DNA of 64,000 nucleotides from Balanoglossus misakiensis (Eukaryota; Animalia; Hemichordata), in contig CM082578.2 in NCBI GenBank assembly GCA_040954595.2, forward strand, positions 14,228,304-14,292,303, written 5' to 3'. Every line of letters begins with the position of its first letter. Positions within the stretch are counted from its first letter, which is position 1. The notes beneath the pieces are model-generated. The model had not been told where the DNA came from and did not search any database. It worked only from the letters and a program-made list of their open reading frames with translations. The position numbers and the translations under genes are program-made. Shown here piece by piece: positions 291-55,100 of the stretch.

Positions 291-1989
291 GAAGAAGACA
301 ACAAACTTCGTGAACAACTCCGTCAAGAATGGGTAGCTAAACAAGAAAAGTTAAAAAGTAAGTGCAATTGACTGTGTTATGATCCAGTTGGACAGAGAAA
401 TCCTTGTTGTCGATCAGATGTAAAGTGCATCATCACATTCTACCCACGATTTTTCTCTACATTTGTTTACAGGTGAAGATGTGGAGATTACGTTCAGTTA
501 TTGGGATGGGTCAGGTCATCGAAGATCTGTTCAGGTGAGAAGATATCACAGTTAATTTAATTATGCGACCATAACAGCAATTCATCAAAAGTGGAATAAG
601 AATAATTCTTTTTTAATGCTTCTCTTCTGCAGATGAAAAAAGGCAGCACCATGCAGTACTTCCTGCAGAAAGCTCTTGAAATGCTTCGGAAAGATTTCCA
701 TGAGCTCAAGTGAGTACAACTGCAATGCTTCAACAGATAGATATTTTTGACCTGTTAATGACTCGCTTCATATTTTGTCCCCAGAACTTCTTTGCACTGT
801 TTCTCGACAATTGCAGTGGTGTTGTTGGCTAGATCTGGAGAGTAAATATGGCTGAGTCAGAACAAGAACAGTCGATGATCATCAGTGATCATATTCATTT
901 TAATTCATTTTTCTGCAGATCAGCAACAGTAGAAAATCTTATGTACATCAAAGAGGATCTGATCATCCCTCATGTAAGTATCAAACCAATTAACTGAAAC
1001 AAAGTTATTCTCTTGGGTATATGGGAGTTCTGTCCAGATTCTGAGCTGATTTGTGTGTGCAGCCTATGGACCCTCAAAAAAGTTGCATTGCACTGCTTTG
1101 CAAGCTCAGTCTGCTTAACTTCTTGTATTCTTATTTTTTATCCAGCATTACAGTTTTTATGACTTCATTGTGACAAAGGCCAGAGGAAAAAGTGGTATGT
1201 ACTGATAGATCTTTGATTTCTTGGCACAGAGCAGTTAACTCATAAAAATCAATTTTATCATTTCCCCAAAAATCAGTCGGTCAGTCAGTCACAGGCGAAA
1301 CAAGAAGGAAGAATTCTCAAGGACTGTACCTAAAATTGCTAAATTCACCATCCCTATGGATGGCATTCTAACCACTGCATAATGATTCTCCCCTATTGTG
1401 TATCACTGCATGCAAAGATTTTACTGTTGCCTTTTTTACCTAGGTCCACTCTTCAGCTTTGATGTCCATGACGATATTAGGATAATCAATGATGCCACAG
1501 TTGAAAAAGACGAGGTGAGCATTTTTACTTCCTGTGCTATTGATCGATCAGGTTTCCTTGGTGTCAACTGTTTGTGGCAAGCAACCCACACATTTGAGAC
1601 ACACTATGTAACGAATCCTCACATATTCATTTTTTTCCTTTCCCAAAGTCTCATGCCGGGAAAGTTGTTTTGAGAAGTTGGTTCGAGAGAAATAAGCACA
1701 TCTTCCCTGCCAGTCGATGGGAACCCTATGATCCAGAAAAGAAGTGGGATAAATACACAGTGAGTCATCCAGTTTGAATTGAAAGATCACATGCTTTACT
1801 TTGCAACTGATTGGTCATGCAGAGAGATTTGTTCAAACAGAACATTGTAACTGGTTTGGGCAGGGGAACTGTGGTAAGATCTTGAAGTTTTACATGTTGG
1901 TCTTGCAACGTAGGACTCATTTATGAAATCACACATAACTCTTCTCATGTTTACTTTTACAGATATCTGATGGAAGAGGAAAGCTCTGA
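291..1989 (+). CDS. FAM50A: FAM50A/XAP5 family nuclear protein, 3' part (5' exons lie upstream of the window)
   Basis: Exons 291-357, 473-534, 633-709, 919-973, 1146-1194, 1444-1514, 1649-1759 and 1963-1989 have GT-AG boundaries and consistent phase. They translate to [59 protein letters not shown]...[38 protein letters not shown]...[29 protein letters not shown], the conserved XAP5 C-terminal domain. Confidence 0.95.
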
Positions 1990-2412
1990 GACTTTTGAGA
2001 ATCTCTCCTGGAAGTCAAAAGTATTCATGCCGTCTTTCAGTGAATTTTCTACGGACGTACCACTCAAAATTACATGATTACATTACACCTGAAATCTTTC
2101 AGATTTTGTGTAGGTGTGTGTGTAAAACTGGGTTTGGCAAGAACAGCCCGCCACCACCATCATCCATCCATGGGTTGATTTCTCTCACTGGGAGCAATCG
2201 TCTTGGTAGCATTTCTACAGGTATAAACAACAGACCCTTTTTAGTCTGAGCACAGAATGGGAAACAAAGGGTATCAACTTTAGAAGGAGGCCATGTATAT
2301 ACAATGTACTTCAGTGTGTGTTCACTGAAGTTGATTTAATTTCTGGTGGTGTGTGCAAGATATAAGTTTACCATGTGTCTTATGTAGTTTTTGACTTTGC
2401 AAAAAAATTATG

Positions 2413-2418
2413 AATAAA
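2413..2418 (+). terminator. Candidate polyadenylation signal (AATAAA) of FAM50A
   Basis: AATAAA about 420 nt after the stop codon, followed by T/GT-rich sequence. Confidence 0.55.
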
Positions 2419-2458
2419 GTTATTACAGTTATGATGCTACATGTTTTCTTGCAATCTT

Positions 2459-2464
2459 TTTATT
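2459..2464 (-). terminator. Candidate polyadenylation signal (AATAAA on the minus strand) of NIT1
   Basis: TTTATT on the plus strand about 115 nt beyond the NIT1 stop codon. Confidence 0.5.
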
Positions 2465-2579
2465 TGTTGATCAGGAGTGCCTACAGTATACTATTAAAAC
2501 CTCAGTCATTTCATTATAAATACAACATCAGTTGCTTCTTGCAACATTCTCCTTTTAAATGTTCGGTGACTATTTTACA

Positions 2580-5500
2580 CTATCCAGTATTTTCAGAGTT
2601 CCTTTCCGCCTTTGCCTGTATTTTCCCATAGAGGTCATATCTCCTGTGATTCCAGCACGGTAGCTGCGTGCGAACTGTCTGTAGGTAGTCCAGATCAATG
2701 TCAGCAACACAGACGTCCACTCCTTCGTGACAACAAGCTATGATACATCCCCAGGGATCAACTACCTGTTAGGTTGAATCAGAAGCATGGACTGTAGAAT
2801 GTTTACTTTGAATGAAAAAATACCAATTTTGTGGAATCTTGCAATGTATAAAACATCCTCTGCAAAGTATGGGTACCTGTAACAGTTAGAAGCTGATGAC
2901 CTGACAGGATTTTCTATCCAGAAACAGACTTGTTGAGTTTTCACGTGAGGGATTTCTACATGTAAATCAATCAAGTTCACATCATGTCAGTGTAACACTG
3001 GCTTTGCACCAAGTGCTTAGAATTTTCTTTGGTACCTGATCTGGGGGAGTACTGGTATTAAACCAATCAGCCAACAATTTCCTTTGATCAGCTGACAATC
3101 AGACTTGGAAATGGAAACTTTCAGACATACGATGCCAAGAACTAAAGTTAAACCTTTTCAACCGCTGACTTGATCTTCAGGATTTCTGTCAGTCAACGTC
3201 ATTAATAAAAGATACCTGTGCAACATGAGCAAATCTCTTCCAAACTGCAGGATTACAGGATTGTGCAATCTGACAACTACCACCATCCTGTCTGTTAAAC
3301 ATCGAAGGAAGGTTGATGACATGTTAGAATAACAGTGTTTCTTTCATAAAGGGGAAGAGGTACAGTCCCCCCTACAGTGGCATCCTGGCTGAAACACTGT
3401 ACTAGTAATAAGATTGCAGATAAAGTACAAATTTCAAGTACACACACCATGGAGTGACCATAGGATGTTCTCTTTTCGTGGTGACGTCCGGTCTGTGCAG
3501 CAGCTATAACATAACACTGCATCTCAATCGCTCGACTTCTCAGAAGAACCTGCAATGGATGGGTGTGAGAAACACTCATCAGACCTCAAAATTTTACTGA
3601 ATAATATGAAATGTATCAGTAGTATCCGATACACTGTGTGCCTCGTAATAGACCAGAAGCACAGTGCATAAAACTGAGAATATCTCATTCCACAAATGGA
3701 TAGGACAGACAGATGATAGAATACTTGACATTTAGTGTACATACACAGATGTAGTTTCAGGTACAAATGATACAAGACCTGTAATGTATCATGCATTGCA
3801 ATGAAAAGCAGGGACATCAACACCTAGGCTATCAGAACCACAGAAGACAAGTGTCTCACCTCCCAATGAGCTGCACCTGTTGTTGCAGTGAATGCTGAAG
3901 GGTAGGTCAGTATCTGTGCACCCTGGTGTGCTAGGGCTATCGACATCTCAGGAAAACGTAAATCATAACACTATTTTCAGTTCAGGAAATAAAACAATCA
4001 TGACAGTGCAAATGGGTAGAATTATTGATTCATTGTTTTTATCTGACTGCCCATCAATACTCAAAGCAACATGTGTACATAAACAGCTTTCAAAGGATAC
4101 AGTTGCCAGACCAATTTTTCCCACTGGAGTGTCCACTGGTGGAATAATTTCATCGCCTGGAATGGTGAAATCACTTTCTTTGAGTCTGACTTGTCCTTTG
4201 ATGTCAATGTCAAATAAATGTGTTTTATTGTAGACGGCAACAATGTCCCCATGACTATTCACTACAATATGAGAATTGTACAGTCGTTGACTGTCTGCAT
4301 TTTCATCCTGAAACGACATGAGACAAAACATTCAGTGTTCATGATGTGTTTGTTTTTCATTTCTTCATTTTTGATACTTTACACAGAGCATTTGAGTGAA
4401 CTAAAACTACAGTGTTGTATATCATAATTTTACAACTCACTGTTGCAATATATTTACCAAAATAACACATCTTTCTTACCAATTTCACAACTTTTAACCA
4501 TAATTTCAACCTTGCTCTTGCATTTGGTTTCATTACTTTACCTGCGGCATTTATTTCACAATGGTTTGATGTTACTGTTTTTAATTAATCACATTATGCA
4601 AGAGAACACTTTTTTAATTTCCATTTTACAAATGCTCTCTAGAGGGCGGCCTGCAAGACAAGTAAAAGTTGAAATTATTTAATATAAACTCTTACTTTGT
4701 GATGCATCCCACCAAGGGACAACCACATGTCATTTTGTTTGGCCAATGCTTTCATGGTTTGCATGATATGTCCATCTAAGGTTTCTGCAAGCTTCATAGT
4801 TTTCTCTCGACTGTCACCAACATAGTCAAAACATTCTGGAAAGAAGGCCATCTAAAAGAGGAAATAAAAAATAAAGGGGAACATCTTCAACTCTCATGTC
4901 CATGCCCACCTCATGTACAATTTACACATATTTCTTTTAGTCAATGTCTGCTGACCATGACTCGACATTATGTATACCTCTAGCAGATGAAAAATAACTT
5001 TTATACATAAAAACAAAGCTAAATGGTACATGTACCTGCATTCTATTATTAGCTTGTGACTATGATATCATTACTATAAATAATGCAAACAATCCTTTTC
5101 ACAGATGGACACCATGGGATATTTTCAATTTTTCGTTTGATTTTTATACATTTGAGTATAAAAATGCTATTAAACATTTTTCATGGTGCAGGTACACTGC
5201 ATTCTTTAGTTGTGGTCGTTCATGGTTCTAGACAAGCTCTGTCTCACCTTGGCACCTTTCTGCTTAGCCTCAGTGATCAACTCCCTGCAGGTTTGTAAAT
5301 TGGCATCTTTGTCAGCCTTACAGTTCAACTGACACACAGCTATGGTGTTCCTATTAGCAGACATCACTGACATCTTAACAACACTATTTGAAAACAGCCT
5401 CCGTGTGAGGCTGATACTAGCTCTAATTCCTACTTGCAGAGTGAGACACCGGTGATACATCAAAACGTCAGCGTCTGTCATTGTAAAAAAAATGAACAAA

Positions 5501-8800: not shown

Positions 8801-11800
8801 TGAGACTTCTAGATTTCTAACACAGATAATAATTCGTATGCAGATGTTCACATCTCATCAATGAACACAGTGCAGCACATCGGGCAAGGCCAGCCAGCAG
8901 ACAAGGTGGTATGTTCAGAGCTCCTGGTACACCTGCTGCCCCAGGTGCAGAGACGGCGAATGTGGGATATGGTCTGGGAAACCCTGCAGCTGACTATACA
9001 GGTAAGAATTATTTTGTTGACAATCAAAATAATTAATAACTATGTCATGCAAAATTCAAAGAAATCAGTGTTGCCAGCTCTTTCTTACCATTACAGCATA
9101 TTCACACAACTAATCTTTTAATTTCCTATTGCTATTCACCATCATTGATTCTACATTTCCTCATCAGATGAAGTCTTGTCACAAGAAGAAGAAAGCAATC
9201 AGTAAGTGGACATTCTTGCTGTCAAATTTTCAATTGATGTGATGCAATAGAATTTTCCATTCTTTGTATAGTACACTTTCAGGAACTGTAAGCTTCACAC
9301 ATGTTTCATTTCTTGACATTGCCAGGTACAGCTATTCACACTCGCCACCACCCGGTGATTCGTGGGCCGATACATCTGAAGCTGATGATACCACGTTTGG
9401 GGCACCCAATGCAACTAAGGTAAGATTTCTAATTCTGATTACATCAGTGCTGGGTGTGGCACATTAAACCGTAATGAAGAATATTAAAAGGCTGTTAAGG
9501 TGTTCCTTGAAATCAAGAAGCATTGTAAATACACAATTTGTTTGACAGCAACAAGAAGTCACTGAAGAAGTCACCTGATATGAAAGTTGTATTCTGTAAT
9601 AAATGTATGTTTTGTATTTCAACCAACACAGGGTGCTGTGGGAGTCAATCTGGCCAAGTTTGTACCAGCGTCTGATACAGAATCAAACAAGAGTGCTCCT
9701 GTTGGTAAGTGGAATCTTTCACCCCCTCAGCAAATGCCATGCTCCAGCCATGGATATTGAAATGGATCTTGAAACTGAAACTGTTTTGTCTCATCAGCAG
9801 GAAAGAGCAAAATACCACGAGCAGTGTCTAAAGAGAGTCTGAACAACATCGAAAAGAAACAGCCCTCACCAATAGATGCTGGGGACAGTAAAATTCCCAG
9901 ACTACAGAAAAACGCAGGTGGGAACAGTCCAGCCACAACGCCCCGCAATGAAAATGCTGCAATGACTCACAGTGACGCTGCACAGACACCGCGGAGTACG
10001 GCCGATACTGAGGTGAGTTGTGTCTGCAAGACCCCCCACCCCCCACCCCCACCCCACCCCGCAAACCCTGTTGAAAGAGTAGGGTGAGTGTAATGTGGTA
10101 CGGGCTTGTAATGGTTTATGTGTTTGGGATAATTGAGTGCGTACTGGTGACCTAATATTTTGTCGAATGTATTTAGTTTGGTGTTCACAGGTGACTAGAA
10201 TTTCTGGAATACGGTATGGGTTGTATTGTTTGGTGTTGTGAGTTTTAATATGGGCTTGTATGGTTTAGTAGTGTGATATGGTTTGGATTTGAAATGGATG
10301 TTATTAAAATGGGGGTTATTGGGTCTACCGGTATACTAAACACAGAAGGGATATATGGGAGTGTAGGTGCTGGGATAGTGGTTTAATAGGCATCGTCATG
10401 TATTTAGTTTATGTATAATGTTGAACTTCAATACACTCTTTACAAGTTCACATGTGATTGTAGTCCCTGGCTTTTACCTGCTCGGTAGTAACTCTTTACC
10501 AAAAAACTTCTGCCAGCTTTGTATGAAATGCCAATCATTGTAAAGTTTTCAAAATAATCTGCGTATATTCTGCTTTGGCAATCCCACAACTTTTATAAAT
10601 GTGCAAATTCACAACTGCAAACAAACTACTAACACATTTTTAAATGTATTTTATTGACCTAACTCTAAATATATTTAAATAATAACACATGATAGCGAGG
10701 GCAATATCACGATTTGAAGCCTGCACGAGGGATGGTGATCTCTGACTACAATATTGATGATGCCCGAGCCGCAGGCGAGGGTATCATCAATATTGTGGTC
10801 AGAGATCACCAGCCCGAGGGCAGGCTTCAAATCGTGATGTTGCCCGAGCATCATGTGTTATTAATTTTATTACGCCGAACATTTGAACGTACATACAAGG
10901 CAGGCATAGAAGAACGTAGACGCGCGTCCATATGTCGTACGTTGCTGAGAATGTAAAATGTCTCGATCTCCCAAGAATTATACGATACCTACTTCGAACT
11001 TAGATTATTTGGAAAATACTGCACTGTTGGTTGCGATTTTGTTGTATTTACTGTCCGTTTGTGGTAAAATATCGTCCAGTTGAACAGGTGTTAAGCCTAT
11101 GTGTCGCTTTGAAGCCATAGATGCGGGAGTTGACTGATCGTGGAGGAAGCCATTGAACGACAGTTTGGAACGCGCAGAAGTCGCGCGCAGAAGTCGCGCG
11201 CAGAACACAAAACAACCCAGCGGGCAATATCAGCGCACGCGACAGGGCTTTATCAACTCTAGCCATGTTATATCACTTTTTTTTCTATATCACGTGAGCG
11301 CGTCTCAGCCAATCACGAATATGGTATAATACGTGAGGTGTAATAATTAAATACTAACATATGTGTGACTGCTTAGCCCTAACTGTATGATTTTATTTTT
11401 ATATTTTTATTTCTGTATGATTAAAGGCTGATAGTAATTTTGACTTTTCTGATGATGATGATGATGTACTGGCAGATCTCTCTGCACACAGTGACTCGCC
11501 CGTCCAATCTTCTGTCCAGGTTTGTCTTCCATCTCCAAATTTCGTCAGTCATCCTTTTGCACTTGAACTGCAGTCAGGCATATGAATGTGTGTGAAACCC
11601 CATCACATGTTGAGCATCCAAATCAAGCATATGTGTCTCCAAATGTCATCCTGTCTGAACCCACAGAATTGTATGTTGTGTGATTTTGTTTTTTTTTATG
11701 CAGTTTCATTTTCACTCTCATTTTGAATGCCACATTCAGATAACTGAAATTTATGTGTGAATGTTTGTTGGGAATATAACCCCTTATGCGTCTGCTATGC

Positions 11801-29591: not shown

Positions 29592-31383
29592 ATGTATATA
29601 CCGTTTTCCTAAGATAAACTCCTTTTGTACAATGTCATTTCTCAATGCAATATTTAAATCATCAACCCTCATTGATGTAAATTAAATTTTAATTCACCTT
29701 ATGTATACTTAATGCTTATTAATAATATATATATACATTAAAATATTACAAATATGTGTAAAGCTCTTACTATTTATTGAGGGACCTCTAAATTTGTATT
29801 ACATTTCCTGATACAACACAGAATCAGTATTGGTGAATTTGTTTTATTACTATATTAATCGAGATGAATTTTCAGAGCTCCAAATGACTACTCATTATTT
29901 ATATACTTAATGCAAAATACTATTCATCCGTCCTTTCAAATCTAACAATTTTATTTTTTACCTGGAAAGGTGCTTTTTATTGTCAGGCAGGATTTGACAT
30001 TGGTGGCAGATTTGCACACATAATAAAATCATCAATTGCCAATTAAAGAAGGCCAATATCACTTAATATATCTCCATATATTGGCAACAGGTTCACAAAT
30101 CCAACGTATTTGGGAGGTTTCCACTTTCCTATTTAAATTTTCTTATATAAAATTATTGATGCCTTTATGGAGAAAACTACAATTCTGTACTTAGAAATCC
30201 ATTGGCAAACAATATTATTTACAACATCATACGTACTTTAACTTGAAATTTAATTTTGTTTTGGATCCATTGGTGCTATGGTGTATCTCTGTGTTTATTT
30301 TAAGGTATACATACAGTCACCTTTATGAATCTAATTACAGATACCATGGAAACAGAAGGTTAGCCAATCACAAGATTCTCACTTGGTTGACTGTGTACCT
30401 TCAATACAGGACATTTTTTGTTTCACCCATACTTCTATCCATTCTCGAGTTTTTACAGGAAAAATTCTAAATCGTCTGTTGGCCTCTTGAATAGGCTGTG
30501 CAGAGTATTTTAAAAAATTAAACAATATTCAATACCATGTTAACAAGTCTCTTGTGTATATGCTTGTGTGTCTGATTTAACCCCTCTGTAAGGCCGGCTA
30601 TGACAAAGAAATATATTTTTTGATGATACCAGCACAACGTCTTGCAGAAAGAATGTGCCCCATGACACGTAAATCTGAATATTCCCAGGGCTTCCGCGTT
30701 CCCCAAGTCCACATCTGGTGGTGCAAATGACCTTTGCCACCAAGAACCATTAAATCCATGACTGGTATCGTTGGGGACAGCCCCTTCCCGTTCCCTCCAG
30801 GAATAAACATGGCATGGTAGAATTTTTTTTTAGGATTCGGTTGCAAAGCGCGCTTAAAGTATGTCTGGATTCTCTCAGACTACACACAGAGAGATATATT
30901 TGCGAAATCCTGGTTCCTACGCCTATGCCGTTGGGGAATGTAAAGATTATTGACCTTTATTGGGATTTCGTTCACATTATTTTTCTAACCCTTTTTGTTC
31001 TGTTTTTCTCTTAAGATTTTTTTTTACTTCAATCTACTATCGTTTAATATAATGTGTATAGCAATCGTTGCTCGTATCGAAAGTTTTAAAGATACATATT
31101 TAGCGTTGAAAACAATCATTTTTTTCCGATGTTTTTATTGGACTCGAAACAAAATGGTGACGAAAAGAAGTCATTAAGTACAGTGCGGTAATCGGTGTTT
31201 TCAATGCTCTTGGGTACAATATTTCATCCATTGACTTGGGCGAGCTTTATAGTTTAGATCATTTTGAAGGACTATTCATGAATTGCGATGTATAAGTATA
31301 AAGTCTAATTCTTCCAAAACTTAAAAATTTCAAAGCATATTACGTACACATTTGAGTACCACTTTGGCAGTAAGTAGCACCTG

Positions 31384-31422
31384 CCCCCCCCCCCCCCCCC
31401 CCCCCCGGTTCCTACGCCTATG
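31384..31422. repeat. Poly-C tract followed by a repeated 16-mer; probable terminus of a small interspersed repeat
   Basis: About 22 C residues then GGTTCCTACGCCTATG; the same 16-mer also occurs at 30912-30927. Confidence 0.55.
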
Positions 31423-31656
31423 TAGACAGTCGGAACTTCCTCCATATCCAGGTTCCTCTCATAAGTTTTATGGTGTCGGCAATGATAGACGATACGTGCT
31501 TAGAACCACGGGGGATAATAACCTACCGCTGCGGATCTTTTTTCCCTGCCAAGTTCCGGAATAACACGCGCAGAATTACATCCTGCAATATCCTGGGAAA
31601 GTTTATTACTCGGAAAAGCACAAAAAATCTCAACATATTTTCAAAACAATATTAGT

Positions 31657-31716
31657 GATACAAAGTTATCTGATACATTTGTCCTGTACATGAGATCCGG
31701 GACTTTGCCTATAAAA
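31657..31716 (+). promoter_or_regulatory. Core promoter of the BRICHOS-peptide gene: GATA site, NF-kB-like site and TATA box
   Basis: TATAAAA at 31710-31716, about 70 bp before the ATG. GGGACTTTGCC at 31699-31709 (canonical kB site GGGACTTTCC). TTATCT (WGATAR on the minus strand) at about 31666-31671, flanked by two TGATAC. Confidence 0.6.
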
Positions 31717-31783
31717 GCCAACGTTTACCTCAGAGAGTCATTCTCCACATCGACGACACAAGACGAACGAAACAGCAGTAACC

Positions 31784-33502
31784 ATGGCGATACTTGTTCA
31801 ACTGATCATCGTAAGCCTGGCGGTGACTTCGATTAGTTCAGCCCCGTCTCCTATAACAAACGTACGTATACACTTGCTTTGAACGATCTACAGTTAAGAC
31901 TAGTCGTGGTTTTTTGTCTTTCGCGACCATAAATGTGGTTAGAGCTGACAATGCTAAAATATTCATTCTCGCTTTCAATTAAGACACAGTCAAAGCTAGT
32001 GGTCAATACCTGACTGATACAAAATATGCATGTACCTGAAGGAGTCTGAACAGAGTCTGTAAAACAGCGATCCGGACGACATACGCAAACAGGAGGTTTC
32101 ATTTTATCCCAGTGGCATTTTTTGCGACCATCCGTTTCTAACATTCATGTACATTTCTGATGCAGGGAACGTGGCATCATCTGACTGTGATGATCGACGG
32201 TGATGAGACGATAGTAACAGTGGCAGTGAATGAAGACAAAGGTATAGAGATGTACAAGACGGAAGACCCAACCCCTGCACTAATTGTCAAGGATTTCAAC
32301 ACCGTAAGTTGAAGATTTGGTATTTTCATCTTTACTATAGTGATACCAACGTTGTGCTCTTGACTTGAGCAAAACTACCCTTACTGCCATAACCTGTCCC
32401 GGGGAGTGGTTTGGCATACTTCGTCATGTACTTGGGATCTTGTCTGACACGAAAAGTCTAGATAGCACAAAGAATAAACCAAACTTTTACCAGGATGATG
32501 CGATATATAATATTTATAAAAGTCAACTTATCCGCTTATTAAACATTCTGATTCTTATTTTTGTAGGGAGTGGAAGCTATCGTCTCAGATGATAGTGAAT
32601 TTTGTTACGTCACGCCCCTGGATAGTAGCAGAAACACAGGGCCGTCTGCATTGAAGTCTGAAGTCGAAAAAAGCGAGGTAAGATCATGATGTTCTCTTTT
32701 TATGTTGGGTATAACCGATCGGGGTTTGTAACGTAACTATACTTCAGACGCACCGTCTTACATGATATTGGGTACCACTACTTGTAACTTCTCAGAAAGA
32801 GGCAATTTCGGTTATTTTAGTTTAAAATATTTTTTCTGGGCCTGTAGGCCTAACACCGATTTTTTTCTATTATGTATAGCATGGTACGTTTTAGTAAATC
32901 CATGTTTAGAAATATTTAAAACGTCAGATTTCACTGACATTTTGGTCATAGTAACCTTTGTCAAAATATCAAAGAATGACATGTACCTTTTCCACAGGGC
33001 GAGATTCAAACGGTGGAAGACGAAACTGACGAGCTGTATTCCACTGGCGGATATCCGATCGTGCGCAAACTCGTCTTGGGTGAAACAATCGCTGAGAAAT
33101 GTGACGGCAGAGATACTTTCTGGCTGATCAGAGTTCCAGGCGAAAGTGGTGGTATGTACACGTACATCTCTAACTCAAATTGACACCCAAAAAAGTATAC
33201 GTCGATGTAAAATTTGTCGACTTTTCACAGTACGGAGCAGAGTGCGTGTCTAAACAGCTGACCAGGGGCCAACTCCTATGGTCCATACTTACCTACTTAT
33301 TAGAAAAATTACCTGTCGCACTGTTAACTTTATTGTGAGTATTTCAGTTAACTCAAGATTTCTCTGTTTCTCTCCCCACCCTCTCGTTTTAGGACGTACC
33401 AAACGTGACGTCGACTGTCGTCATGTATTAGTGTGCAGTGTCGAGTATCAGAATGGTCAGTGGGTTCGAAGCTGCAGATACGAACTCAAGTGCTCATTCT
33501 AA
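31784..33502 (+). CDS. Secreted BRICHOS-domain precursor with a furin-cleaved C-terminal 4-Cys beta-hairpin peptide (196 aa)
   Basis: Exons 31784-31861, 32166-32303, 32567-32677, 32998-33151 and 33393-33502, all GT-AG with intron phases 0,0,0,1. Protein: MAILVQLIIVSLAVTSISSAPSPITN / GTWHHLTVMIDGDETIVTVAVNEDKGIEMYKTEDPTPALIVKDFNT / GVEAIVSDDSEFCYVTPLDSSRNTGPSALKSEVEKSE / GEIQTVEDETDELYSTGGYPIVRKLVLGETIAEKCDGRDTFWLIRVPGESG / GRTKR-DVDCRHVLVCSVEYQNGQWVRSCRYELKCSF*. BRICHOS hallmarks are IVKDFNTG (conserved Asp), CYVTPL and LGETIAEKCDGRDTFWL (the two conserved Cys). The start has a strong Kozak context (accATGg). Confidence 0.85.
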
Positions 33503-36500
33503 GTCAAGATAAGCAAGCCTAAAACGAACGGTTACGTTAGGTAAACCGTTGAAATTATAGTGTGATTTGTATTACGGCATGCGGTCCATTATCACTACTG
33601 GGTCAAGAAATTAAATAAGAAATTTCACAAAATCCGGATGCATGAAACTTTCTGAATGAATAATTCTAGATACATTACATCATTAGTGAAGGAGAGTTCA
33701 TAATTAAGCATAGATTTTGCAAAATACGTTTCGTGAGCAATCATTTTTTCTTTTATCTTTCTTTGTTTAATGTTCTAGTATGTTGTGGAATATGGGTAGA
33801 TTTAATCAGAAAACAGCAGTAATCATTTTTAGGCAGTATTGTACCGATTTTGGTGGTGAAATTGTCACACCACTTTTGTATTGATTTTTTTTCCAGATTA
33901 CAATTCTGTATTTCTGCCAGATGTTGCAACTGGCGATTCTAGAACTTTTGTATTCTTGCAGCTGCAAAGTGTCATTAGAAATAAAACAATCATGACTGTA
34001 CTCAGTGCGTCTTGTGCGGAAATTCATCTCTGTATCTCCCTCCTCTCCCCCACTCTAAATGTTTCATATGTTCTTGGAAAAGTCACGAATTTGAACTTAT
34101 GTGCAATCTGATTAAAATCAGATGTAGTTAGGCGCCAATTTTACTTTTGCTGATTCCATGCTGTTCTGTTCGGGGGCCAGTGAAGTGTACGCCCAAGAAC
34201 AGCCAACACAGAGAACAGAACAATCAAAACTACTACCAGCGCCTAACTCTATATCTGATTTAGGAATGATCATTTCCTCAGTCTGGGCAGATGTCGCTTA
34301 GATTGTTCATCCCTATTCATGGAAATCAGGCAATTTAGGGTGACCAATGTGACTGAATCACCACCACGTGATCTCCGCAAATACTCCAAAGCACCAGATT
34401 TTTAAAATTTTTGTTCTTCTCTATTCCTGGGTAAATTAGATATCAGATACAACTTACTTTTTTTCTCTCTAAACAGTTTCAGGAAATTCTTCTGCATGGT
34501 GCAGCACATTCTCCATGCTCTTGTGGGACAGGATAAAGGTGCCCAAAGAGTCTTTCCATCCACAATGACCCGAAGTTTGAGAAGAACCAAATTGTAAACT
34601 TACACGTGTGTTGCCAAATACCAACACAATAATAGTCATATAGACAGCATACACACTTTGTGTTAAGAAATCTTTTTTTAAAAAAATATTCAAATTTGCA
34701 TAGAATTACAGGTTTTTCATGATGAAATATACATTGAATGTACATGTTTTATCCAAACATTGTTTTTATCAAATGATCTGTGGAGGGTTATCCACGTCCA
34801 TAATGCCGACACTCGCAACATATGGTTAGGCGACTACCATGAAACTCTCTGCCCACTTTGAAGCGTCACAACAGAGAGGATTCTGGTCACTTTCCGATTT
34901 GCAACCGACGTAGGTTCTGTGTTTTCCTAGCAACACACAGGTCATGTCACAAGAGGATTGATGGAGCATGGTCACACGTTCTCCCACAAGTCGGCATTCT
35001 GTACACAGCAGCAAAGCAGACAAAATTCCACATGGCAGCTAGGAGACAGCACACACAAACAGAAGATGCCAGGACCGCACTTGGCACATCACGATGGCAG
35101 TCATGGTAGCATTATTGTTGTACAGCACACTCCAGGAGTTGAGAGACACACACGGGCAACACACCGCGGAAACTGACGAGTCACACACAGACAGAAACAA
35201 CTTGGTGAGGACATTTCACTGTTTAATATGCATTGAGTTACGATATCTCAGTAGTCGACGATATATTCAAATTCACTACCACAATTGATACAATCTTGAA
35301 GCCAATTCATAAAGGAAATTCTACTTGGTGGCGTAGACATTGTTATTAAAATACAGTAATAAGTCTATTACAGTCAATTCATAAATCACCATCTATCACC
35401 TTGAAAATTTGAGGAAAGTTCTCAGTACAATTAGCAGGAGGCATACAAATAGTCTCTTTCTACTGTATACATGTACTTCTGTTTAAGCGCAGTTAGTGAC
35501 AGCTCCAGGCTCTAGTTGCGACTTTCCCACTGATACTAAATCTTTGGTAGAACTATTCTACTACGAGACAAATATGGATGGTCATAAAACATCATACATC
35601 TCAGAAAGTTCTTGCGCCAAAATTGGCAGAGACTACAGACATGCGTTAAAATTACAGTATTCGGGAAGAGGAAAGGTGAGAAATAAAGACATGAAATTCA
35701 TCTACTGTTGCAGGTTTCTAATTTTTTCACACTTCAAAAACAAACTTTTTCTGTATTCCAAAATGTTACTTTTTTACTGAAATGACAGTTTACATTGATA
35801 AAATGACTCTCTAAAAAAATTAAATCAGTTCTACAATTCCAATGCTCTTCAACAAAGATTTGCTCAAAAAAAATTTGGAATGACTTTGGTTGACCTTGAG
35901 AAAAAAAGGCATTTCTCATTTCATATTTGAAATGTTCAGTGTTCGCCACATTATACATGATGGGAGACATCTTGATTTGATATTATAACATGTGCAAAGA
36001 GGTCTGTGCACTGTTTGGTTTCATTTTCAGGCTCTGAAATCAGCTAGTGATGAAAAATGGCAGTCGGGTCAGTTCCGACATTTTTCGAAGATTTGTGCTT
36101 GACACACACCTTAGGCAGTTTTGTACAATTTCACAAAATCCACATCAACCCTCATAAGTTAGTGCACACTGCAACAGAACAGGTGATCTTCATACGACCA
36201 TATTAAATTCATTTAAAATGTCTCACAAGCGGGACTGATCAATCAGAATTATCATATTTTGATGCATCAAAACATAATTGATGGTAAACATGAACTTGGT
36301 CTTGCCCATCTTTTAGTGAGAGAGGCTTGTTCAAATTGCTTGAGGAAAGAAAGAAATTTCAGAGTCTCATAAGGCTCATCATTTTGGGACATGGCTTAAT
36401 AATAAACCACAAATTATAAAATGTTGCCCAGCAACAACAATGCTACCATTTTCAGTTCATTTTTATATAGACCAGATCACAATTGGAGGAGTTTCCAGCA

Positions 36501-38969
36501 AGTACATGTACCCTTCTAAGTACTGCTGTCAATTGAGGACACCTACAGTACAATTCACTGTGAGAGGGGTGTGTGAATGTCCAACAAACTTCTCAGTTGT
36601 GGTGCTGAGGCCAGAATCTTTGATTTCATCTACGCTTCACTACAACAACTGAAAACATGTAAAGTAGATGTCAAATTTCCTTGAAATGGAAGCTGCAAGT
36701 GATTTTTAACAGATTGAAATATTTGGCAAATAACATGCACTGATTTTTGAAAAGTTCTTTACATTCTTTCAGGCATGTGAGAAGACCATCTTAGGAGAAC
36801 ATAGTTTGGAAATGAGCAAACATTTTTCACGTTTATGTGCATGAACTATTGGTAAATGCAAAAAAATGTAAAAAGGTAACAATCTTTCAGTGCTCAACTA
36901 AAGATGTCTTCTCTTTTTCCTTTGAGTTTCCTCCTCAGCTGTTTGGTGGCACAATCATAGACGTGACTGTATTCCTTTGCAACTTCATGTCATCTCCCTC
37001 CGCGAGGTCTTAGGAACAACACTTGTGCAAGGTGTGGTAATGATGGCGTATAGCAAACTGGCCTCCCTGGTAAAGATGATACAGACATAAATATTGAAAT
37101 GCTTATCTGTACGAAACTAATCACCAATTTCTTCGGTGAATGCATGAAGGCAATTTATAAGAGGAAAGTGCACATTCCCGACATATGGTGTTAATGGAAC
37201 ACAGATTTCACAATGCTGATGGAAGATTATCACATCCGGCACAGATCTTATCAATTGATATTCCTCCGCATTTTGTTGAGATAGTGGCCTCACTGAGTTG
37301 AACACATACCTTCTGATGTTTCCAATATGGGGGTCACAGGTGGCTGTTGTTGCCAGGTGTATCACATCCGAATCACACAATGTCACAATTCTGTAATCAG
37401 CATCACACAAGATCTTATCACAGATGAGTTATCAGCACGTCAGCACACTTAGCGTCATCTGCAGTATCAGCGGTTCTGTTCTGAATCAGACATGAGATTA
37501 CTGCAATGTTGATGTTGATGTAATATGCATCACATTAGATGACATAGGACAGCTCAGGGAACTGCATACAAGATGACAACATAGATGATATAATCTGCTG
37601 CATGACAGTCTTAGCAGCACAGTTGTACATTCTGCATGACAATACCACAGCACAGTTGATGCTGATGTAATCAACATAAGATGACATTTTTTGTAGAAAG
37701 TAAGCACAGCGTCTGTTATGGCATTTCACAGGTGTATACAGTACCAGTGGATGACATCACAAGAAGCTGGAATTTCATCGTAGTTTAGGCAGTTGAGTTC
37801 TATTGTCCATTTCACATCACACGAGGTTGTTGCACAGGTTCATGATGCTTGATTGCTTGGGCAATGTATCATCACACAAAGCTCCGCAACTTCAGGGCAG
37901 ATGAGTGCAAGGGGTAGCAGATTTCGAACACATCGCTGGACAGATAATGTAGTGCAAAGTGATTGCAGACTTCACATATCACTGCTAAGGGCTTGTAGTT
38001 GCAGATATGCCAATCAGACTGCTGAGACTGTTCATACTCCCAGTTGGTGAGCACAGATTTCAAGGCTTCATTGCATCTACAGTATCACTTCCAACAGCAT
38101 CCACATTAACGAGAATTGATTTCTCCTGTGGCAGGGGCAGATGCATTGACACAAGTTCAGCTGAGTTCAACACATTTCATTTCATTGATGGGAATTGAGG
38201 GTGTGGCTTTTTGTGAGATTTAGGCTAGCTTTCATGCTTCTGGCATTATAAGGCAGCTGTCTTCTTTTTCTGATGATCAGATCTTCTTCTGACAAACACA
38301 TTCCAAGGAGCGTATCATTTCTTCTTTTCTCTTGGCACTTCCTCAGGCACTTCTGATCACATCTTTCAATTCACACATTTCACAAATTCGATGACACAAA
38401 GTTCTTGCAACACAACTTTTGGCTTTTTCGATTTCAACAAGTTCCTCTTCCAAATACACAAGCGTTGAAAGCATTTTGTAACAGTTCCTTTTCACAGTAA
38501 TGAAACTGACGAGAAGACTTGGCTTCAGTATGCGAAAGTTCCTTCAGTTCCTTGGATCATGAAAGACAATTTTGAGGTCAGGGTAACTGCATTATAATCA
38601 CACTTTTACCAGCATTTTTACAGCAAGTCAGGGTAATAATTTGATCACAAAACAAACGCTGAAGACTGTTGTTCTGCAGACGGTTGTTGAAAAGCATTGG
38701 AATAACCGACGAAACACACAAATCAAGTTTCAAAACACCTTCCAGGCTTTAAAATCACACAAATGAAGACACCAGTGAAGAGATTTTGCAGACCGGGGAA
38801 AAAATCAACTTCTTCCTTGAGCAGGTGGTTTGAGAATGCAAAACACATCACACTGGCCAAATCCTTCCTTCTACTACTATCTTCCTTATTGACGGAATTC
38901 AAAAAAAAAATATCAAATATCAAATCTTAAATGAACTTGTACAGACTTGGACTGATGGGTGGAATCATT

Positions 38970-41399
38970 TTATGCCGCACCGCGTACAACAATCACAACT
39001 AAATGATCCTCCTTCGATGGTTCTTGTCCCAGGCTTGGTGCGACCCGCAACAGGTATTTATGAGAGAATTCACAAGGTGGAAAAGCATGCAGAACACCAA
39101 CTTCACGTTCCTTTGGTTTACTTGATGCTCCTACAGGCAAACTGATCACACCCGCAGCTTGTTTCTGTTGCAGATAGGAGACCAAGTTCCGCAGAGGTCG
39201 CATCTGTGTTTGATTCGGTTCCTCCACATTTTGTTGGGATTCGGGCAAAGCAAGCAGAAGACAATATCCCGAGCTACCAGCAGACGAAATGCGGCGAGTC
39301 ACTTCCTCCAGCTTGGGCTGATCCAAGCGCAGGCGCTGAGTAATTCGTAAGACATGCGACTCACTGGAAGCAGAATCACTCAACAGTGTATCAACAACAG
39401 TCGGATCACCACCAATCAAATGCATTCGAGTTGCAAACGCACTATTTTTCAACACCACAGATCCATGCCAAGCAACCGGAAAACAATCTCCAAGATCAGT
39501 CAAGGTGTCAACTTCCTCAACCCTATCTCTATCCCGAATCTTTTTGTCGTGTTTGCCGCGATGTTTGGATTTGTCGTTGATTTTGGAATCCTCTTCGTAC
39601 TTGTCAAGTCTGTCTTTGTCAGACTTGGCGTACTGATCACTACTGTTTGAGCGGCGACGCTTCAGCCGTGGCTCCCTTGGTGATATTTCGTGTTTGTTGG
39701 GGGGAGTTCTGGGAGGTGACACAAGCCGGGAATCCGATCGGTATTTGTCTGGTGGTGAATAGTCACGATCGTGGATTGGTTCAACAGAACGCCTTTTGCG
39801 CACATCCCTAGTCCTTGATGGCGATGCACTTCTGCCTCTTGGTGGCGTTCCACGTTTTCGACGGTCGCTACTTCCCATGTCACGAGTCCTTGGAGGAACA
39901 TCATTTATGCGACGTCTGTCCCAGTCTGGCTCACCATGTCGGTTCATACCACCATGGTTGCGTTCCACAGGCCATTCGTCCCTGCGTGGTGGCGGCGGCG
40001 GTGGTGGCAGTGAATAACCGCCGGGATTTGCGTTCGCCCATAGGTCCATCTCCCCATCTCTGTAATGCGGTGGCGGGGTAAGTCCCCTCTCTGGGTTTCG
40101 GCGATAATGCTCAGTCAGCATGGCATCATGGTGTTGTCTGTGCGGCGAATATTGAGGTACAGGATATGCTTTCACCGTAGACTCTGGGTCAGCGAAATCG
40201 ACACGCAATCGTCTGTCTGCTCCTCCCAGTGGAAATCCTCTCATTTGTGAACAAGCAGCTTGAGCTGCATCAAGGGAATCATACAACACATACGCATGAT
40301 TATCACCCTTGATGTAGTCAATTTTCCGAATGGCACCAAAACGGTCAAACTCACGTTCAAGAACAGCAAGTGACGTCCAGGGACCCAAACCTCCTACCCA
40401 CAATCGAGTTGTTGGAACAGGTTTTCCATAGCCAATTTTACAAATATTCCTACCAATATATTGCCCTGACATTGCAACTTTGGCTTTGTGAGCCATATCA
40501 AGATTCATGAATTTCACAAAAGCATATGCATTACCCTGACCTCTCATGGGTCGTTTCACATCAACATCTTCCACGATACCAAAACGGTCAAACATCCGTC
40601 GCAGATCTGACTCAAGAACATTTGCTTCAAGGTTTCCAACAAACAGCGTACGTGTAGCTCTTTGGTCATCTTCTGGCAGCATGTGTTGTTCACGTGGAGT
40701 GTAGTATTCAGTGGCATTGGCATATGTTGTACGTCTGTTGTCGTATGCTTGGTACGTACGATCACGTGGTGTCATCTCGCGAGTCAAACTCCCATGTCTG
40801 ACAGCCCTCCTTGAAGATGCAGCAGTGTGTGTCGAGTAATTAGATTCTGGACTTAAACTCCTTTGTTTCAATCTACCATGGTCTTGTGGTAAATAAACTG
40901 GCGTTATATCCACAGTGCGATCGAACAACACAAGCCTCCCTGTTTTGGCACGTCTTGCTTCACGCGCATCATCTGTGACCCTAAAACTCACATAAGCCAC
41001 CCTCTCATCCCCGGCTGTGTAAGTCAAACGCACGTTTACATCGCCAAATTTTTTGAATTCGTGATACAACGCGTCTTTGATTGCCATGTCGGATACATGC
41101 GAGCTAAAATTCGACACTTTGAGTGTCCTATACTCTTGTTTGTTGGTTGCTGCTCGTTCAGGGTATCCGCTGTCGCGATCGCGGTCAAATCCGTCCCTAT
41201 CGTTTCGAAACCTCGAATCACGTTTTTCTCTCTTTTCCAATTTTCCATGGTCAGCACGACTGAATTTGCCCCTACCTTCACGCCTCTCGCGGTCGCTCTC
41301 AGGGGTGATGCGATCTCTTGCACTCCTTTCATGCATGTCTGACGTCCCTTTAGATCTCTTTGATTTTGAATTTGAGTTCCTATCTTGCTGACGTTTCAT
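38970..41399 (-). CDS. RBM15: RNA-binding protein 15 / spenito (3 RRMs + SPOC; m6A writer-complex adaptor), uninterrupted ORF, 809 aa
   Basis: RRM1 (YRTLKVSNF...ERVAYVSF), RRM2 (PEDDQRATRTLFVGNL...YAFVKFMNLDMAHKAKVAMSG), RRM3 (PTTRLWVGGLGPWTSLAVLEREFDRFGAI...RLRVDFA) and SPOC (AWHGSVVLKNSAF...LRITQRLRLDQPKL...LRNLVSYLQQKQAAGVISLP...LHAFPPCEFS). The first in-frame ATG is at 41399 (MKRQQDR); the ORF-track start at 41456 is a GTG. Confidence 0.96.
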   Translation of the reverse strand: MKRQQDRNSNSKSKRSKGTSDMHERSARDRITPESDRERREGRGKFSRADHGKLEKREKRDSRFRNDRDGFDRDRDSGYPERAATNKQEYRTLKVSNFSSHVSDMAIKDALYHEFKKFGDVNVRLTYTAGDERVAYVSFRVTDDAREARRAKTGRLVLFDRTVDITPVYLPQDHGRLKQRSLSPESNYSTHTAASSRRAVRHGSLTREMTPRDRTYQAYDNRRTTYANATEYYTPREQHMLPEDDQRATRTLFVGNLEANVLESDLRRMFDRFGIVEDVDVKRPMRGQGNAYAFVKFMNLDMAHKAKVAMSGQYIGRNICKIGYGKPVPTTRLWVGGLGPWTSLAVLEREFDRFGAIRKIDYIKGDNHAYVLYDSLDAAQAACSQMRGFPLGGADRRLRVDFADPESTVKAYPVPQYSPHRQHHDAMLTEHYRRNPERGLTPPPHYRDGEMDLWANANPGGYSLPPPPPPPRRDEWPVERNHGGMNRHGEPDWDRRRINDVPPRTRDMGSSDRRKRGTPPRGRSASPSRTRDVRKRRSVEPIHDRDYSPPDKYRSDSRLVSPPRTPPNKHEISPREPRLKRRRSNSSDQYAKSDKDRLDKYEEDSKINDKSKHRGKHDKKIRDRDRVEEVDTLTDLGDCFPVAWHGSVVLKNSAFATRMHLIGGDPTVVDTLLSDSASSESHVLRITQRLRLDQPKLEEVTRRISSAGSSGYCLLLALPESQQNVEEPNQTQMRPLRNLVSYLQQKQAAGVISLPVGASSKPKEREVGVLHAFPPCEFSHKYLLRVAPSLGQEPSKEDHLVVIVVRGAA

Positions 41400-49123
<7,724 letters not shown>

Positions 49124-52100: not shown

Positions 52101-52182
52101 TAACTTCTCTTTGCACACAGGCAAATCACCCTTACATGTTGTTCCTCTGTCGAAGCCTAGCTGAGAAGCGGACGAACGTTGG

Positions 52183-55100
52183 ATGATGGATGTATTTGTG
52201 GCGAAATACGACTACGAGAAAGAGAGGGACGATGTACTTAGTTTCAAGAAAGGTGACAAGTTTGAAATCACGCACAAACCCGATGATAAATGGTGGGCCG
52301 CAAAAAGAATCGGCGATGGATCCCGTGGATATGTACCAGCACTTTATTTAGAGGTACTCACAGTATTATTCATGCATATAGAATATATCGTGTCTGTTAA
52401 CGTTACGCCGAAATAAGGCAGTTTTTCACGGTGGTGTGTGAACGCGTAATACAGTACATACACTGACCTCCTCACTCAATATTCAATGACCACCCGGCCA
52501 AACAATGTAGTAGGTACACCCTTTCTTATCCGATCACGACATTAAAAATCGCATTGTACTGCACTTCTTTGCAGCCTTCGAGAGACAGAGTCATTGGCAA
52601 GCTTATACCTGAAGAAATAAGAAAATCGGTAGGTCAAGAATCCACCTAAACACTCGTTGATATGCTATATAACATTTGCTGCGGGTCCTCCCACATTTGG
52701 GACTGTTCATGGCTACGCCTCGAGCCTACATCTACTGTATGCTCGACTTTATTTGGGAATATACAGTTTATGCTACGGACCCGCAGCAAGTGACAATACT
52801 ATAGTTATCATTTTTGGTGTAATACCTAATGTATTAGTTCACAGACCCTGTCTCACTCCAGGGTCTATGGATTAGTATTGAAATGTATAAATAGATATTT
52901 ATAGTGGTGCAAATATGATTGTACTGACATAATGTGTGGGGCAGGTGCTAGTTAATTTGTTTGGTGTTATCATATTGTTTATTAATTAGATGACACACAA
53001 AACCAGTAGCAATTCTTTGCGAGTTCCCTTGTGTTGTATTAAAGAAAGTATTTGCTTGCACTATACAGTATACGGCAGGAGTTTGTTTGGAATACAAATT
53101 ATATTTGAATATATGACTTAATAATGTGTAAGTTTGACTTTCACATTTGAAATATAGCATGGATAATATTTACGAGTAATTATATAAAAAAGACAACCTC
53201 ATTCTGAATAAAAAGATAGTCAAAATTGAAAGAGACGTATCATGCAGAATTATAAATTTGGTGCAGGTGTTACATTTTTGTCGTCAGTCTCTTGTAAGAG
53301 GAAGCGCGTGAATGTTTTATGGCAAGGAAACATTGCAGTACAATGCATACAGTCAGTCTCTTTGCACATCCATATGTCAGTCATTCCAACTGAAGACAAC
53401 TGCAGTTTATAGAGAAATTTTAATGGTTCTTTGTAAATGTTAATAATATTTCCCACAGACCACATTCAATACACTACACAGTTAATTGTTTATCATCTGT
53501 TGCATTGTTTGTCAGCGTACTGTTAGATAATTTCTGAGTCGTTGAATTAGCATTGGTATGCTGACTTATGCTGGTTTCATCTGCATATGTTACACAAGAT
53601 AAAATATACCACATTTCACACAATGGACTGTATTATTTAATTATTAATGCAGATGTGATATGATGTTTCAAAAATTATAATTTGGAAATGAATGTGCACA
53701 AATTTATCCAAAAATCTCCTTTTTATTCAGGGCATCAGAGATTCCTGGATAAATGTGTGCTTATTCTCTTTATACAGTGACGTGATATTGATCTGCTACA
53801 GTCAAATATTCAATTCACATTTCTGTGTATTATTTATTTTACCTAAATAGAAGAAAACATTCTTGATTATGTGCAGCATGATAAATTGGTGTAAAATGTA
53901 CATTGTAACTTGATCTGGCCTTTAGAAATGGTGTTTTGTTATTCATGATTATGTTGCAGTTACCTGTAATGGCATCTTTAAAGAGAAATTTGGCATAGAT
54001 AGACGTGGAAAAGAGATTAAGAATGAATAATGGATGGCATTCTCCAATCTGTGAGCAGTATAATTTTAGAATGCATAGGAAATAATCTGTGATATATGAA
54101 AATATACAGTTGAAGGGGAAATATTACACTCCTATTGTGATGATAACATGTCTGTCATTTTTGGCTTTGTGAAACCAGAATGTTCCTGGGTATGAAAATT
54201 GTATTACTGGGAATTTTAATTTTATGAGACTTATGATGCAGTAAGAGAAATCACAGCTGCATGCCCACTGCATGTTTTGATATTCATTTTGTAAAGTTTA
54301 ATCTTCTGTAATCGAAGTCACAAAAAGCAAATCCTTGTACCTCAGGTCTTGGAGATAAACTCTCCATTTCAGAATGGCTACTGTGCACGCATAAACTGAA
54401 TGCTGAACATTTCACATAATGCCCCCATAGTGAATTTCTCAGCAGGTAAACCTGTGTGTGGGTTCATTCTATTATATCGGTATTGGATTGTACAAATTAC
54501 TCATCAAAGTACATGTATCATTCTTTTTCGCCTAGTGACAGGAAGCCGTGAAAAGAATTTGCTGTGCCTTTCACAGGCGGTACTAGAACATAAAGACGTT
54601 CTTGTTGGTAGGGAACTGTGACCTGTCAATCATACTTCAGCCCAGTCAGTCACATGACGAGTGAAGTGAACACTCCAACGGTTACTCAATGGGTTCAGAA
54701 TGCAAACCAGTCTTGTGCAGTTTCAGAATTCAAATCGACTAGATCTGTTGGTATTTCTGTCACGTGGAATGAGGATCGCATGCATCAAAGTGGAGACAAC
54801 CGCCCACACCTTCTGGATGGCCAACTTCCCTTCAGCTAAAGTCAAGTAGTAGTTGTTGGCTAAGTGTTGTTTTTTTTCCACATTTATGAGACAAGAGTTT
54901 CAGAACTGTATTATCACATAACTGAATATATTTTGGGGAAAATGAACCCCTTTTCACTTGGGAAGTATTAAAACAATTGATGGGCACAGGCCGTACATGT
55001 TCCTGGCTGGCTTTGTTAGTCACAGTGGTGTTGGTGTTGACAAGAAATTCATGGCTCATGTGTCCTGCCTGGTCCTGCCATGTGACTGTTTTGCTGTTAT

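Follow-up and report, generated by a model that had tools for sequence, protein, structure and literature searches.

Genes and features of the locus

The 64,000-nucleotide stretch of DNA analysed here (the window) carries a five-exon gene for a 196-residue BRICHOS preproprotein whose C-terminus is a predicted two-disulfide peptide (Table 1). The gene stands alone in the interval 29600-38970, with an ankyrin-repeat coiled-coil gene, which we take to be ANKRD26-like, on one side and a single-exon RBM15 gene on the other. The ankyrin-repeat gene is head to head, at a distance of about 300 nt at most, with a gene for a carbon-nitrogen hydrolase, presumably NIT1-like; a protein kinase gene, in our assumption MAPKAPK2-like, and an SH3 protein gene lie elsewhere in the window. 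RBM15 is informative about the host: the encoded protein is 93% identical to that of Ptychodera flava, 83% to that of Glandiceps talaboti and 78% to that of Saccoglossus kowalevskii, against 48% or less for the next-ranked matches, and a 16-row tree places the window copy and that of P. flava as sisters (SH-aLRT 99). Because of this identity and tree position we take the host to be an enteropneust hemichordate, probably of the ptychoderid group. The preliminary description of the gene had held that it would be of particular interest if the host were not an annelid, and the host is not.

Table 1. Positions of genes, exons and sequence features in the window
Feature	Position	Strand	Remarks
Carbon-nitrogen hydrolase gene	about 1500-5500	-	
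Ankyrin-repeat coiled-coil gene	5770-29570	+	
TATA box	31710..31716	+	74 nt 5' of the start codon; from sequence, function putative
Exon 1, coding part	31784..31861	+	Residues 1-26, with the predicted signal peptide at about 1-19 and the first part of the linker
Exon 2	32166..32303	+	Residues 27-72; strands of the linker and the first part of BRICHOS, with conserved Asp69 (codon 32292-32294)
Exon 3	32567..32677	+	Residues 73-109; BRICHOS; first conserved Cys, Cys85 (codon 32603-32605)
Exon 4	32998..33151	+	Residues 110-160; C-terminal half of BRICHOS; second conserved Cys, Cys144 (codon 33100-33102)
Exon 5	33393-33502	+	RTKR site, 31-residue peptide and stop
RTKR, furin-type R-X-K/R-R	33395..33406	+	Residues 162-165, in exon 5; from sequence, presumed cleavage site
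Predicted mature peptide, 31 aa	33407..33499	+	Cys 4, 10, 23 and 29; Asn-Gly turn 16-17; net charge 0
Stop codon TAA	33500..33502	+	Closes the coding part of exon 5
Candidate poly(A) signal ATTAAA	33610..33615	+	From sequence; AATAAA further on at 33980
RBM15 gene	38970-41402	-	Single exon
Protein kinase gene	45800-49100	+	
SH3 protein gene	52165-52416	+	

Two imperfect palindromes, at 10677-10866 (85% over 191 nt) and 42165-42351 (69% over 200 nt), are possibly MITE-like elements. Upstream of the BRICHOS gene a 19-nt direct repeat (95%) occupies 30909-30927 and 31404-31422, the second copy following a long C run. A kappaB-like decamer with one mismatch to the consensus sits at 31699-31708, right before the TATA box; because the window holds five such decamers where 2.2 are expected (5 of 100 shuffles reach five), it is weak, and we have set it aside as evidence. 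A second pattern gave nothing here.

Gene model

The joined coding sequence comprises 591 nt, equivalent to 196 residues and a stop. Its introns (304, 263, 320 and 241 nt) are all GT-AG, in phases 0, 0, 0 and 1, with a GC content of 34-40% as against 46-51% in the exons. Ranked with approximate matrices built for this analysis, the donors used are numbers 1, 3, 6 and 10 among the 136 GT dinucleotides in 31700-33600, and the acceptors used are numbers 1, 3, 4 and 8 among the 113 AG dinucleotides there. The ten best donors and acceptors combine into 218 models, a single one of which reaches 190 residues, and that one is the model proposed in the preliminary description; among dinucleotide shuffles any 190-residue model arose in one of 1000, and one with a signal-like N-terminus in none of 1000. 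An alignment of the joined model with P. flava XP_070573665.1 spans both from end to end (91 of 197 positions identical, 46%; 3% gaps; E 6e-56). At the exon 2/3 junction all 10 alignment columns are identical to this protein, and at the three other junctions 1-5 of 10 are identical and 2-3 are gapped; the latter junctions fall in variable loops, so the exact borders there depend on splice signals and frame. No additional in-frame exon was found in introns 1-3, no alternative peptide exon in 33152-38900, and no ATG in the stretch from the TATA box to the start codon.

Coordinates, GT-AG borders, frame, shuffles and the end-to-end RefSeq alignment agree on five phase-consistent exons and a 196-residue protein, and the model is confirmed as far as sequence can confirm it; we infer that it is transcribed and spliced in this form. 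One detail of the proposed structure changes: the 31-residue peptide was thought to occupy an exon of its own, and it does lie in exon 5, but the RTKR site lies there too. Splicing to a fair alternative acceptor in intron 4, at 33230 (rank 5 of 113), would leave out the furin site and the peptide and bring the protein to an end after a few more residues.

The BRICHOS preproprotein

The protein begins with a hydrophobic stretch (hydropathy 2.8 over residues 2-14), followed by Ser-Ala-Pro at 19-21, which 17 of 21 relatives likewise have; hydropathy and family alignment together predict the signal peptide that had been proposed. The pro region has a net charge of -17. The BRICHOS motifs quoted previously (IVKDFNTG, CYVTPL, LGETIAEKC..RDTFWL) are all present, as is the furin consensus RTKR, in the R-X-K/R-R form that relatives keep.

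Scanned singly against Pfam, exon 4 matches positions 58-91 of the BRICHOS family PF04089 at 11.8 bits, relative to a cut-off of 25, and the other four exons give no BRICHOS match. Against an HMM of the family described below the match is weak for exon 1 (E 0.34) and then rises through exon 2 (E 1.3e-7; 71% identity over 28 residues with P. flava paralogue P0123) and exon 3 (E 8.2e-11) to exon 4 (E 1.6e-15), and the window protein scores 196 bits. A search of 1.84 billion representatives with exon 4 gave three proteins at E 0.001, of which two are BRICHOS proteins of P. flava (E 8e-6 and 1e-5), RefSeq entries that score 47 and 50 bits with PF04089, above the cut-off (P0123: 50.4); the end-to-end alignment of the joined model is to one of these two. 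The top match, P0121, is a repetitive protein lacking BRICHOS and was dropped as a chance match. All 13 full-length relatives match PF04089, and a profile of 13 relatives matches 8rnu, the structure of the human Bri2 BRICHOS domain, with E 3e-9. Asp69, Cys85 and Cys144 are spaced by 16 and 59 positions, exactly as are D144, C160 and C219 of ITM2A, which are given as the sole residues invariant across the BRICHOS superfamily (PMC2751770). The window protein retains 30 of the 35 residues that are invariant in 13 relatives, among them every one of the six Cys and the two Arg of the site, and it has the four BRICHOS regions, namely hydrophobic region, linker, BRICHOS and a beta-prone C-terminal region. 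Full-length homology to PF04089-positive proteins, the invariant Asp and Cys and the family HMM score thus bear out, at the level of homology, the assignment as a BRICHOS preproprotein.

Several searches were less informative. For the prodomain, fold searches were made with a model of paralogue P0124 only (pLDDT 63); both put BRICHOS on top, below the usual significance marks (Foldseek: Bri2 BRICHOS 8rnu, E 0.04, prob 0.93; VIA: proSP-C BRICHOS 2yad, Z 6.9, rmsd 2.8, 67 aligned). A complex prediction of the P0124 prodomain with its own peptide, in which the alignment was not used and the partner fold was uncertain, scored 0.02 and speaks neither for nor against binding. PDB sequence searches with exons 2 and 4 and the peptide gave chance rows only (E 0.5-1.8), a word-index search with exon 4 alone scored none of 7 candidates, and the Atlas gave no usable match with exon 4.

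The predicted mature peptide

AlphaFold2, run on the single sequence, models the peptide as a hairpin with strands at 3-15 and 18-30 (pLDDT 95.9). The Asn-Gly turn brings Cys10 opposite Cys23 and Cys4 opposite Cys29 at cross-strand, non-hydrogen-bonded sites; such a placement occurs in 1e-4 of 200,000 shuffles, a test framed after the pattern was seen. Hydrophobic residues make up 12 of 14 on one face of the predicted hairpin and 3 of 15 on the other. Model and Cys/turn geometry therefore predict a two-disulfide amphipathic beta-hairpin, in keeping with the disulfide hairpin suggested beforehand. We found no significant PDB match to the peptide by sequence or fold (Foldseek with the hairpin model: none at E 0.001), in line with the earlier remark that it was not recognisable as a described peptide.

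Four basic residues (3 Arg, 1 Lys) are balanced by four acidic ones (pI 6.7), the highest acidic count of the 15 peptides compared, the others having 2 at most. The Cys spacing, 5-12-5, is that of its own subclade. Three residues separate the site from the first Cys, compared with one in 21 of 21 relatives, by virtue of a two-residue acidic insertion; removal of the 2-3 N-terminal residues would bring the computed net charge to +1 or +2, such trimming being a guess. The peptide is identical at 17 of 28 positions to that of P. flava XP_070573664.1.

An acorn-worm family of BRICHOS precursors

A search with two relatives and the exons yielded 14 clusters out of 2823 candidates. Thirteen are P. 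flava RefSeq proteins, 10 of them on a single 44.0-Mb sequence, and the remaining cluster is unnamed, on contigs of 1.1-1.4 kb. RefSeq has named the thirteen automatically as 'arenicin-1-like' (4), LECT1-like (4), ITM2C-like (1) or uncharacterized (4). The common 44.0-Mb sequence and neighbouring accession numbers, and these only, suggest a tandem arrangement in P. flava. No polychaete precursor was among the matches of either this search or that with exon 4, and neither search returned Saccoglossus or Glandiceps proteins, at a sensitivity too low to show absence.

Every one of 21 relatives combines R-X-K/R-R with a Cys-containing peptide of 25-31 residues, and the position of the site is the same in all 22 sequences when the window protein is included. 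In the set of 14 representatives, four Cys are present in 12 of the peptides and a net positive charge in 13, at or above +3 in 9 of them; two of these relatives have peptides of 25 residues or fewer, and many family peptides are rich in Tyr, Trp and Arg. Over the 91 pairs formed by the window protein and 13 full-length representatives (fragment P0133 was left out), mean pairwise identity is 55% in BRICHOS, 36% in the peptide and 24% in the peptide once the shared Cys are discounted. Seven close pairs were compared, and every one of them differs more strongly in its peptide than in its prepro part (in one, 38% as against 90% identity, Fisher p 4e-9); these pairs were hand-picked and are not independent, and their p values, 0.03 to 4e-9, derive from amino-acid counts, not dN/dS. 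Relatives with variable C-termini, for which the preliminary description proposed a search, exist in P. flava; the window itself holds no second copy (tblastn; family HMM over 2818 six-frame segments). The window protein shows no such excess of peptide divergence relative to its own subclade, identity being 43-59% for the peptide as against 45-50% for the prepro part.

In a tree of 17 acorn-worm-type rows, built without an outgroup after 4 near-duplicate or aberrant rows were dropped, the window protein groups with P0127, P0123, P0124 and P0133 (support 100/99), its own branch being long (0.84-1.0). Peptide charges in this subclade are +1, +2, +3, +4 and +5, and the closest peptide (61% identical) is the one with +5. 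In the Atlas, P0123 has gastrokines and a cluster of cnidarian BRICHOS proteins as feature neighbours (0.93-0.94). In P. flava, the relatives are spread over sequences of 44.0, 63.0, 53.1 and 40.1 Mb and RBM15 is on one of 47.3 Mb; as that sequence is without any relative found, no syntenic orthologue is seen, which hints at a moved copy or at an unannotated orthologue in P. flava.

The P. flava set P0122-P0142 is an expanded family of BRICHOS precursors with Arg/Tyr/Trp-rich two-disulfide hairpins, charged +3 to +6 in most; as antibiotic candidates, XP_070572723.1, XP_070572757.1, XP_070572758.1 and XP_070544431.1 appear more promising than the window peptide. P0134 (XP_070572870.1) and P0135 (XP_070537158.1) have 25-residue peptides that contain six and eight Cys in place of four; we take the eight-Cys peptide to resemble hepcidin in size and Cys count. 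P0138, an ENA record, has a prodomain (nearly) identical to that of P0129 and a peptide that runs off past the second Cys, and is probably a frameshifted allele or an assembly error.

Function and alternatives

Sequence and homology establish the exon structure, the BRICHOS domain, the RTKR site, the Cys pattern, the family and the phylum of the host. On balance we think it probable that this is an intact BRICHOS preproprotein gene in which the prodomain chaperones an RTKR-released hairpin that serves as a host-defence peptide; that the acorn-worm family as a whole supplies defence peptides we hold with good confidence. The signal peptide would direct the precursor into the secretory pathway, where the acidic BRICHOS domain may hold the aggregation-prone hairpin while the disulfides Cys4-Cys29 and Cys10-Cys23 are being made. 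A furin-type convertase would then cut at RTKR and free the hairpin, hydrophobic on one face and polar on the other, whose targets in mucus or coelomic fluid may be the membranes or surfaces of microbes. The window copy is weakly charged, and so hydrophobic insertion or self-assembly, as opposed to electrostatic capture, would be its likely mode of action, unless N-terminal trimming raised the charge to +1 or +2. Secretion, hairpin binding during folding and convertase release are reasoned from what is described of BRICHOS biology (PMC9714404, PMC10182729), and host defence from the family pattern together with polychaete precedent (PMC10745061, PMC6265681, PMC5431198, PMC9410094, PMC6780910, PMC11767717).

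The defence role put forward in the preliminary description fits the family, an expanded set of mostly cationic, fast-diverging hairpins, better than it fits the window peptide, which is neutral. An antibiotic reading of this copy must be tempered by that neutrality, by a length greater than that of described beta-hairpin antimicrobials, by the two additional residues ahead of the first Cys, and by a divergence no greater than that of the prodomain. The 27 beta-hairpin antimicrobial families covered by one review are all 11-25 residues long with charges of +1 to +8 (PMC13001179); by the characters given there the window peptide is outside the range in length and charge and conforms in having Cys pairs at least three residues apart and Arg in excess of Lys. 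The same gene and processing might deliver a mucus or epithelial product, comparable to gastrokine or Bri23 peptides and structural, self-assembling or signalling, that is non-microbicidal, even were the cationic paralogues antibiotics. Its failure on charge and length speaks for this, as do the weakly charged peptides of the subclade, a peptide conserved as well as the prodomain, the cnidarian and gastrokine neighbours of P0123 and the reported inactivity of Bri23 (PMC6780910). We nevertheless rate a non-microbicidal product as rather unlikely: the protein nests firmly (100/99) in a family of mostly cationic, aromatic and fast-diverging hairpins, its nearest peptide is strongly cationic, the predicted hairpin is strongly amphipathic, and anionic invertebrate antimicrobials such as theromyzin exist (PMC11767717).

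The peptide might also stay unreleased or bound, leaving the secreted BRICHOS domain, an anti-aggregation chaperone, as the working product. BRICHOS domains are described as having chaperone activity of their own (PMC9627735, PMC10182729), and Alvinella is reported to release both parts, the domain diversifying (PMC5431198); set against the constant position of R-X-K/R-R throughout the family, and the fact that among close paralogues it is the peptides, not the domains, that vary most, we regard this as very improbable. We are equally sceptical that the gene is a stray duplicate, little expressed or decaying, which lost its charge under relaxed selection. It is single-copy in the window with no syntenic P. 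flava orthologue seen, sits on a long branch although RBM15 is so similar in the two hosts, and bears the acidic insertion, yet it keeps an open frame across five exons, strong canonical splice sites, a TATA box, most of the residues invariant in the family and, without change, the Cys spacing found in its subclade.

Novelty and significance

The preliminary description had gone further and proposed a previously undescribed BRICHOS-plus-client system. We do not uphold this, because the layout is general to BRICHOS proteins, RefSeq already carries 'arenicin-1-like' names, and coral predictions are in print (PMC2751770, PMC9714404, PMC12960093). The general layout is given as a hydrophobic region, a linker, BRICHOS and a C-terminal beta-prone disulfide peptide (PMC2751770, PMC9714404), BRICHOS proteins of echinoderms and amphioxus were already on record in 2009 (PMC2751770), and the same layout serves BRICHOS proteins that have no antimicrobial role, the Bri2 peptide being reported as inactive (PMC6780910). 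The BRICHOS antimicrobial family was described as polychaete-only in a 2019 review (PMC6780910), and a 2026 coral proteome lists two predicted BRICHOS-related antimicrobials (PMC12960093). Literature searches for hemichordate BRICHOS peptides, and for arenicin with Ptychodera, found no paper, and no title on antimicrobial peptides of hemichordates came up, most subscription journals lying outside the search; term searches of two marine antimicrobial reviews (PMC11767717, PMC12466427) returned no mention of hemichordates; and BRICHOS and arenicin were absent from the searched supplements of two hemichordate genome papers (PMC11618098, PMC4729200), a search that perhaps did not extend to their large tables. 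What the locus adds is a BRICHOS-peptide precursor, polychaete-like in layout, in a phylum where such peptides seem to be undescribed.

Starting from this gene one arrives at an acorn-worm family of at least 14 clusters, in animals closely related to chordates, and this family offers hairpins of 25-31 residues, most of them cationic and aromatic, ready for synthesis. Two questions thereby become testable, namely whether defence peptides made with BRICHOS are both old and widely distributed, and what role a neutral member has. Tentatively, we entertain the possibility of an old animal strategy, with acorn-worm BRICHOS hairpin antibiotics as the first in a deuterostome, from whose kind gastrokine and Bri peptides may descend, and with the window copy as a charge-neutral or trimming-activated member. 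If so, BRICHOS-plus-hairpin defence would not be an annelid speciality, and the window copy would work without the cationic charge thought essential for the class; should the peptides be inactive, the gene would add one more invertebrate BRICHOS protein.

Comparison with known systems

The closest counterparts are P. flava XP_070572754.1, XP_070573665.1, XP_070545516.1 and XP_070573664.1, which are 46-49% identical to the window protein, form one subclade with it (100/99), and share its layout, R-X-K/R-R site and 5-12-5 Cys spacing. Their automatic names are uncharacterized, LECT1-like and ITM2C-like, they have 'arenicin-1-like' paralogues, and none of the P. flava relatives has been studied in the searchable literature. 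The window protein departs from them in its neutral peptide, in which two additional residues precede the first Cys, and in the solitary position of its gene beside RBM15. Outside the acorn worms, non-annelid BRICHOS precursors have been proposed as sources of defence peptides in the coral Pocillopora acuta (CAH3125467, XP_058945786.1; PMC12960093); these are cnidarian, are known by prediction only, and are likened to the window protein here by description.

Among vertebrate proteins, the gastrokines GKN1-3 are secreted, with a signal peptide, a BRICHOS domain and a size similar to that of the window protein, and lie near P0123 in the Atlas, but are gastric products of vertebrates. Human ITM2B/Bri2 has a homologous BRICHOS domain, as the profile match to 8rnu indicates, and furin likewise frees a C-terminal hairpin peptide from it (PMC9714404). 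Bri2 differs in being a type II membrane protein with a 23-residue peptide described as not antimicrobial (PMC6780910), whereas the hydrophobic stretch of the window protein begins at residue 2 and its peptide has two predicted disulfides. The type II layout of ITM2 and LECT1 is not seen here, there being no N-terminal segment before the hydrophobic stretch and no upstream ATG after the TATA box.

The polychaete precursors (arenicin, alvinellacin, capitellacin, abarenicin, nicomicin and the HfBRI series) are alike in layout, as the preliminary description had recognised from the signal peptide, acidic pro region, RTKR and C-terminal peptide. Shared with them, so far as sequence and prediction indicate, are the signal peptide, the anionic BRICHOS proregion, the dibasic site and a C-terminal disulfide hairpin on the last exon (PMC6265681, PMC5431198, PMC10745061). 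Published BRICHOS trees contain a clade of annelid antimicrobial precursors (PMC9627735); the tree built here covers acorn-worm-type rows. Two polychaete hallmarks, a cationic peptide and an annelid host, do not apply: arenicins and alvinellacin have 21-22 residues and charges of +4 to +6 (PMC6780910, Table 4), compared with 31 residues and neutrality here, and polychaetes are annelids where the host of the window gene is a deuterostome. The window gene has four coding introns as opposed to the five introns of alvinellacin, and alvinellacin is likewise encoded on the last exon (PMC5431198, PMC6265681).
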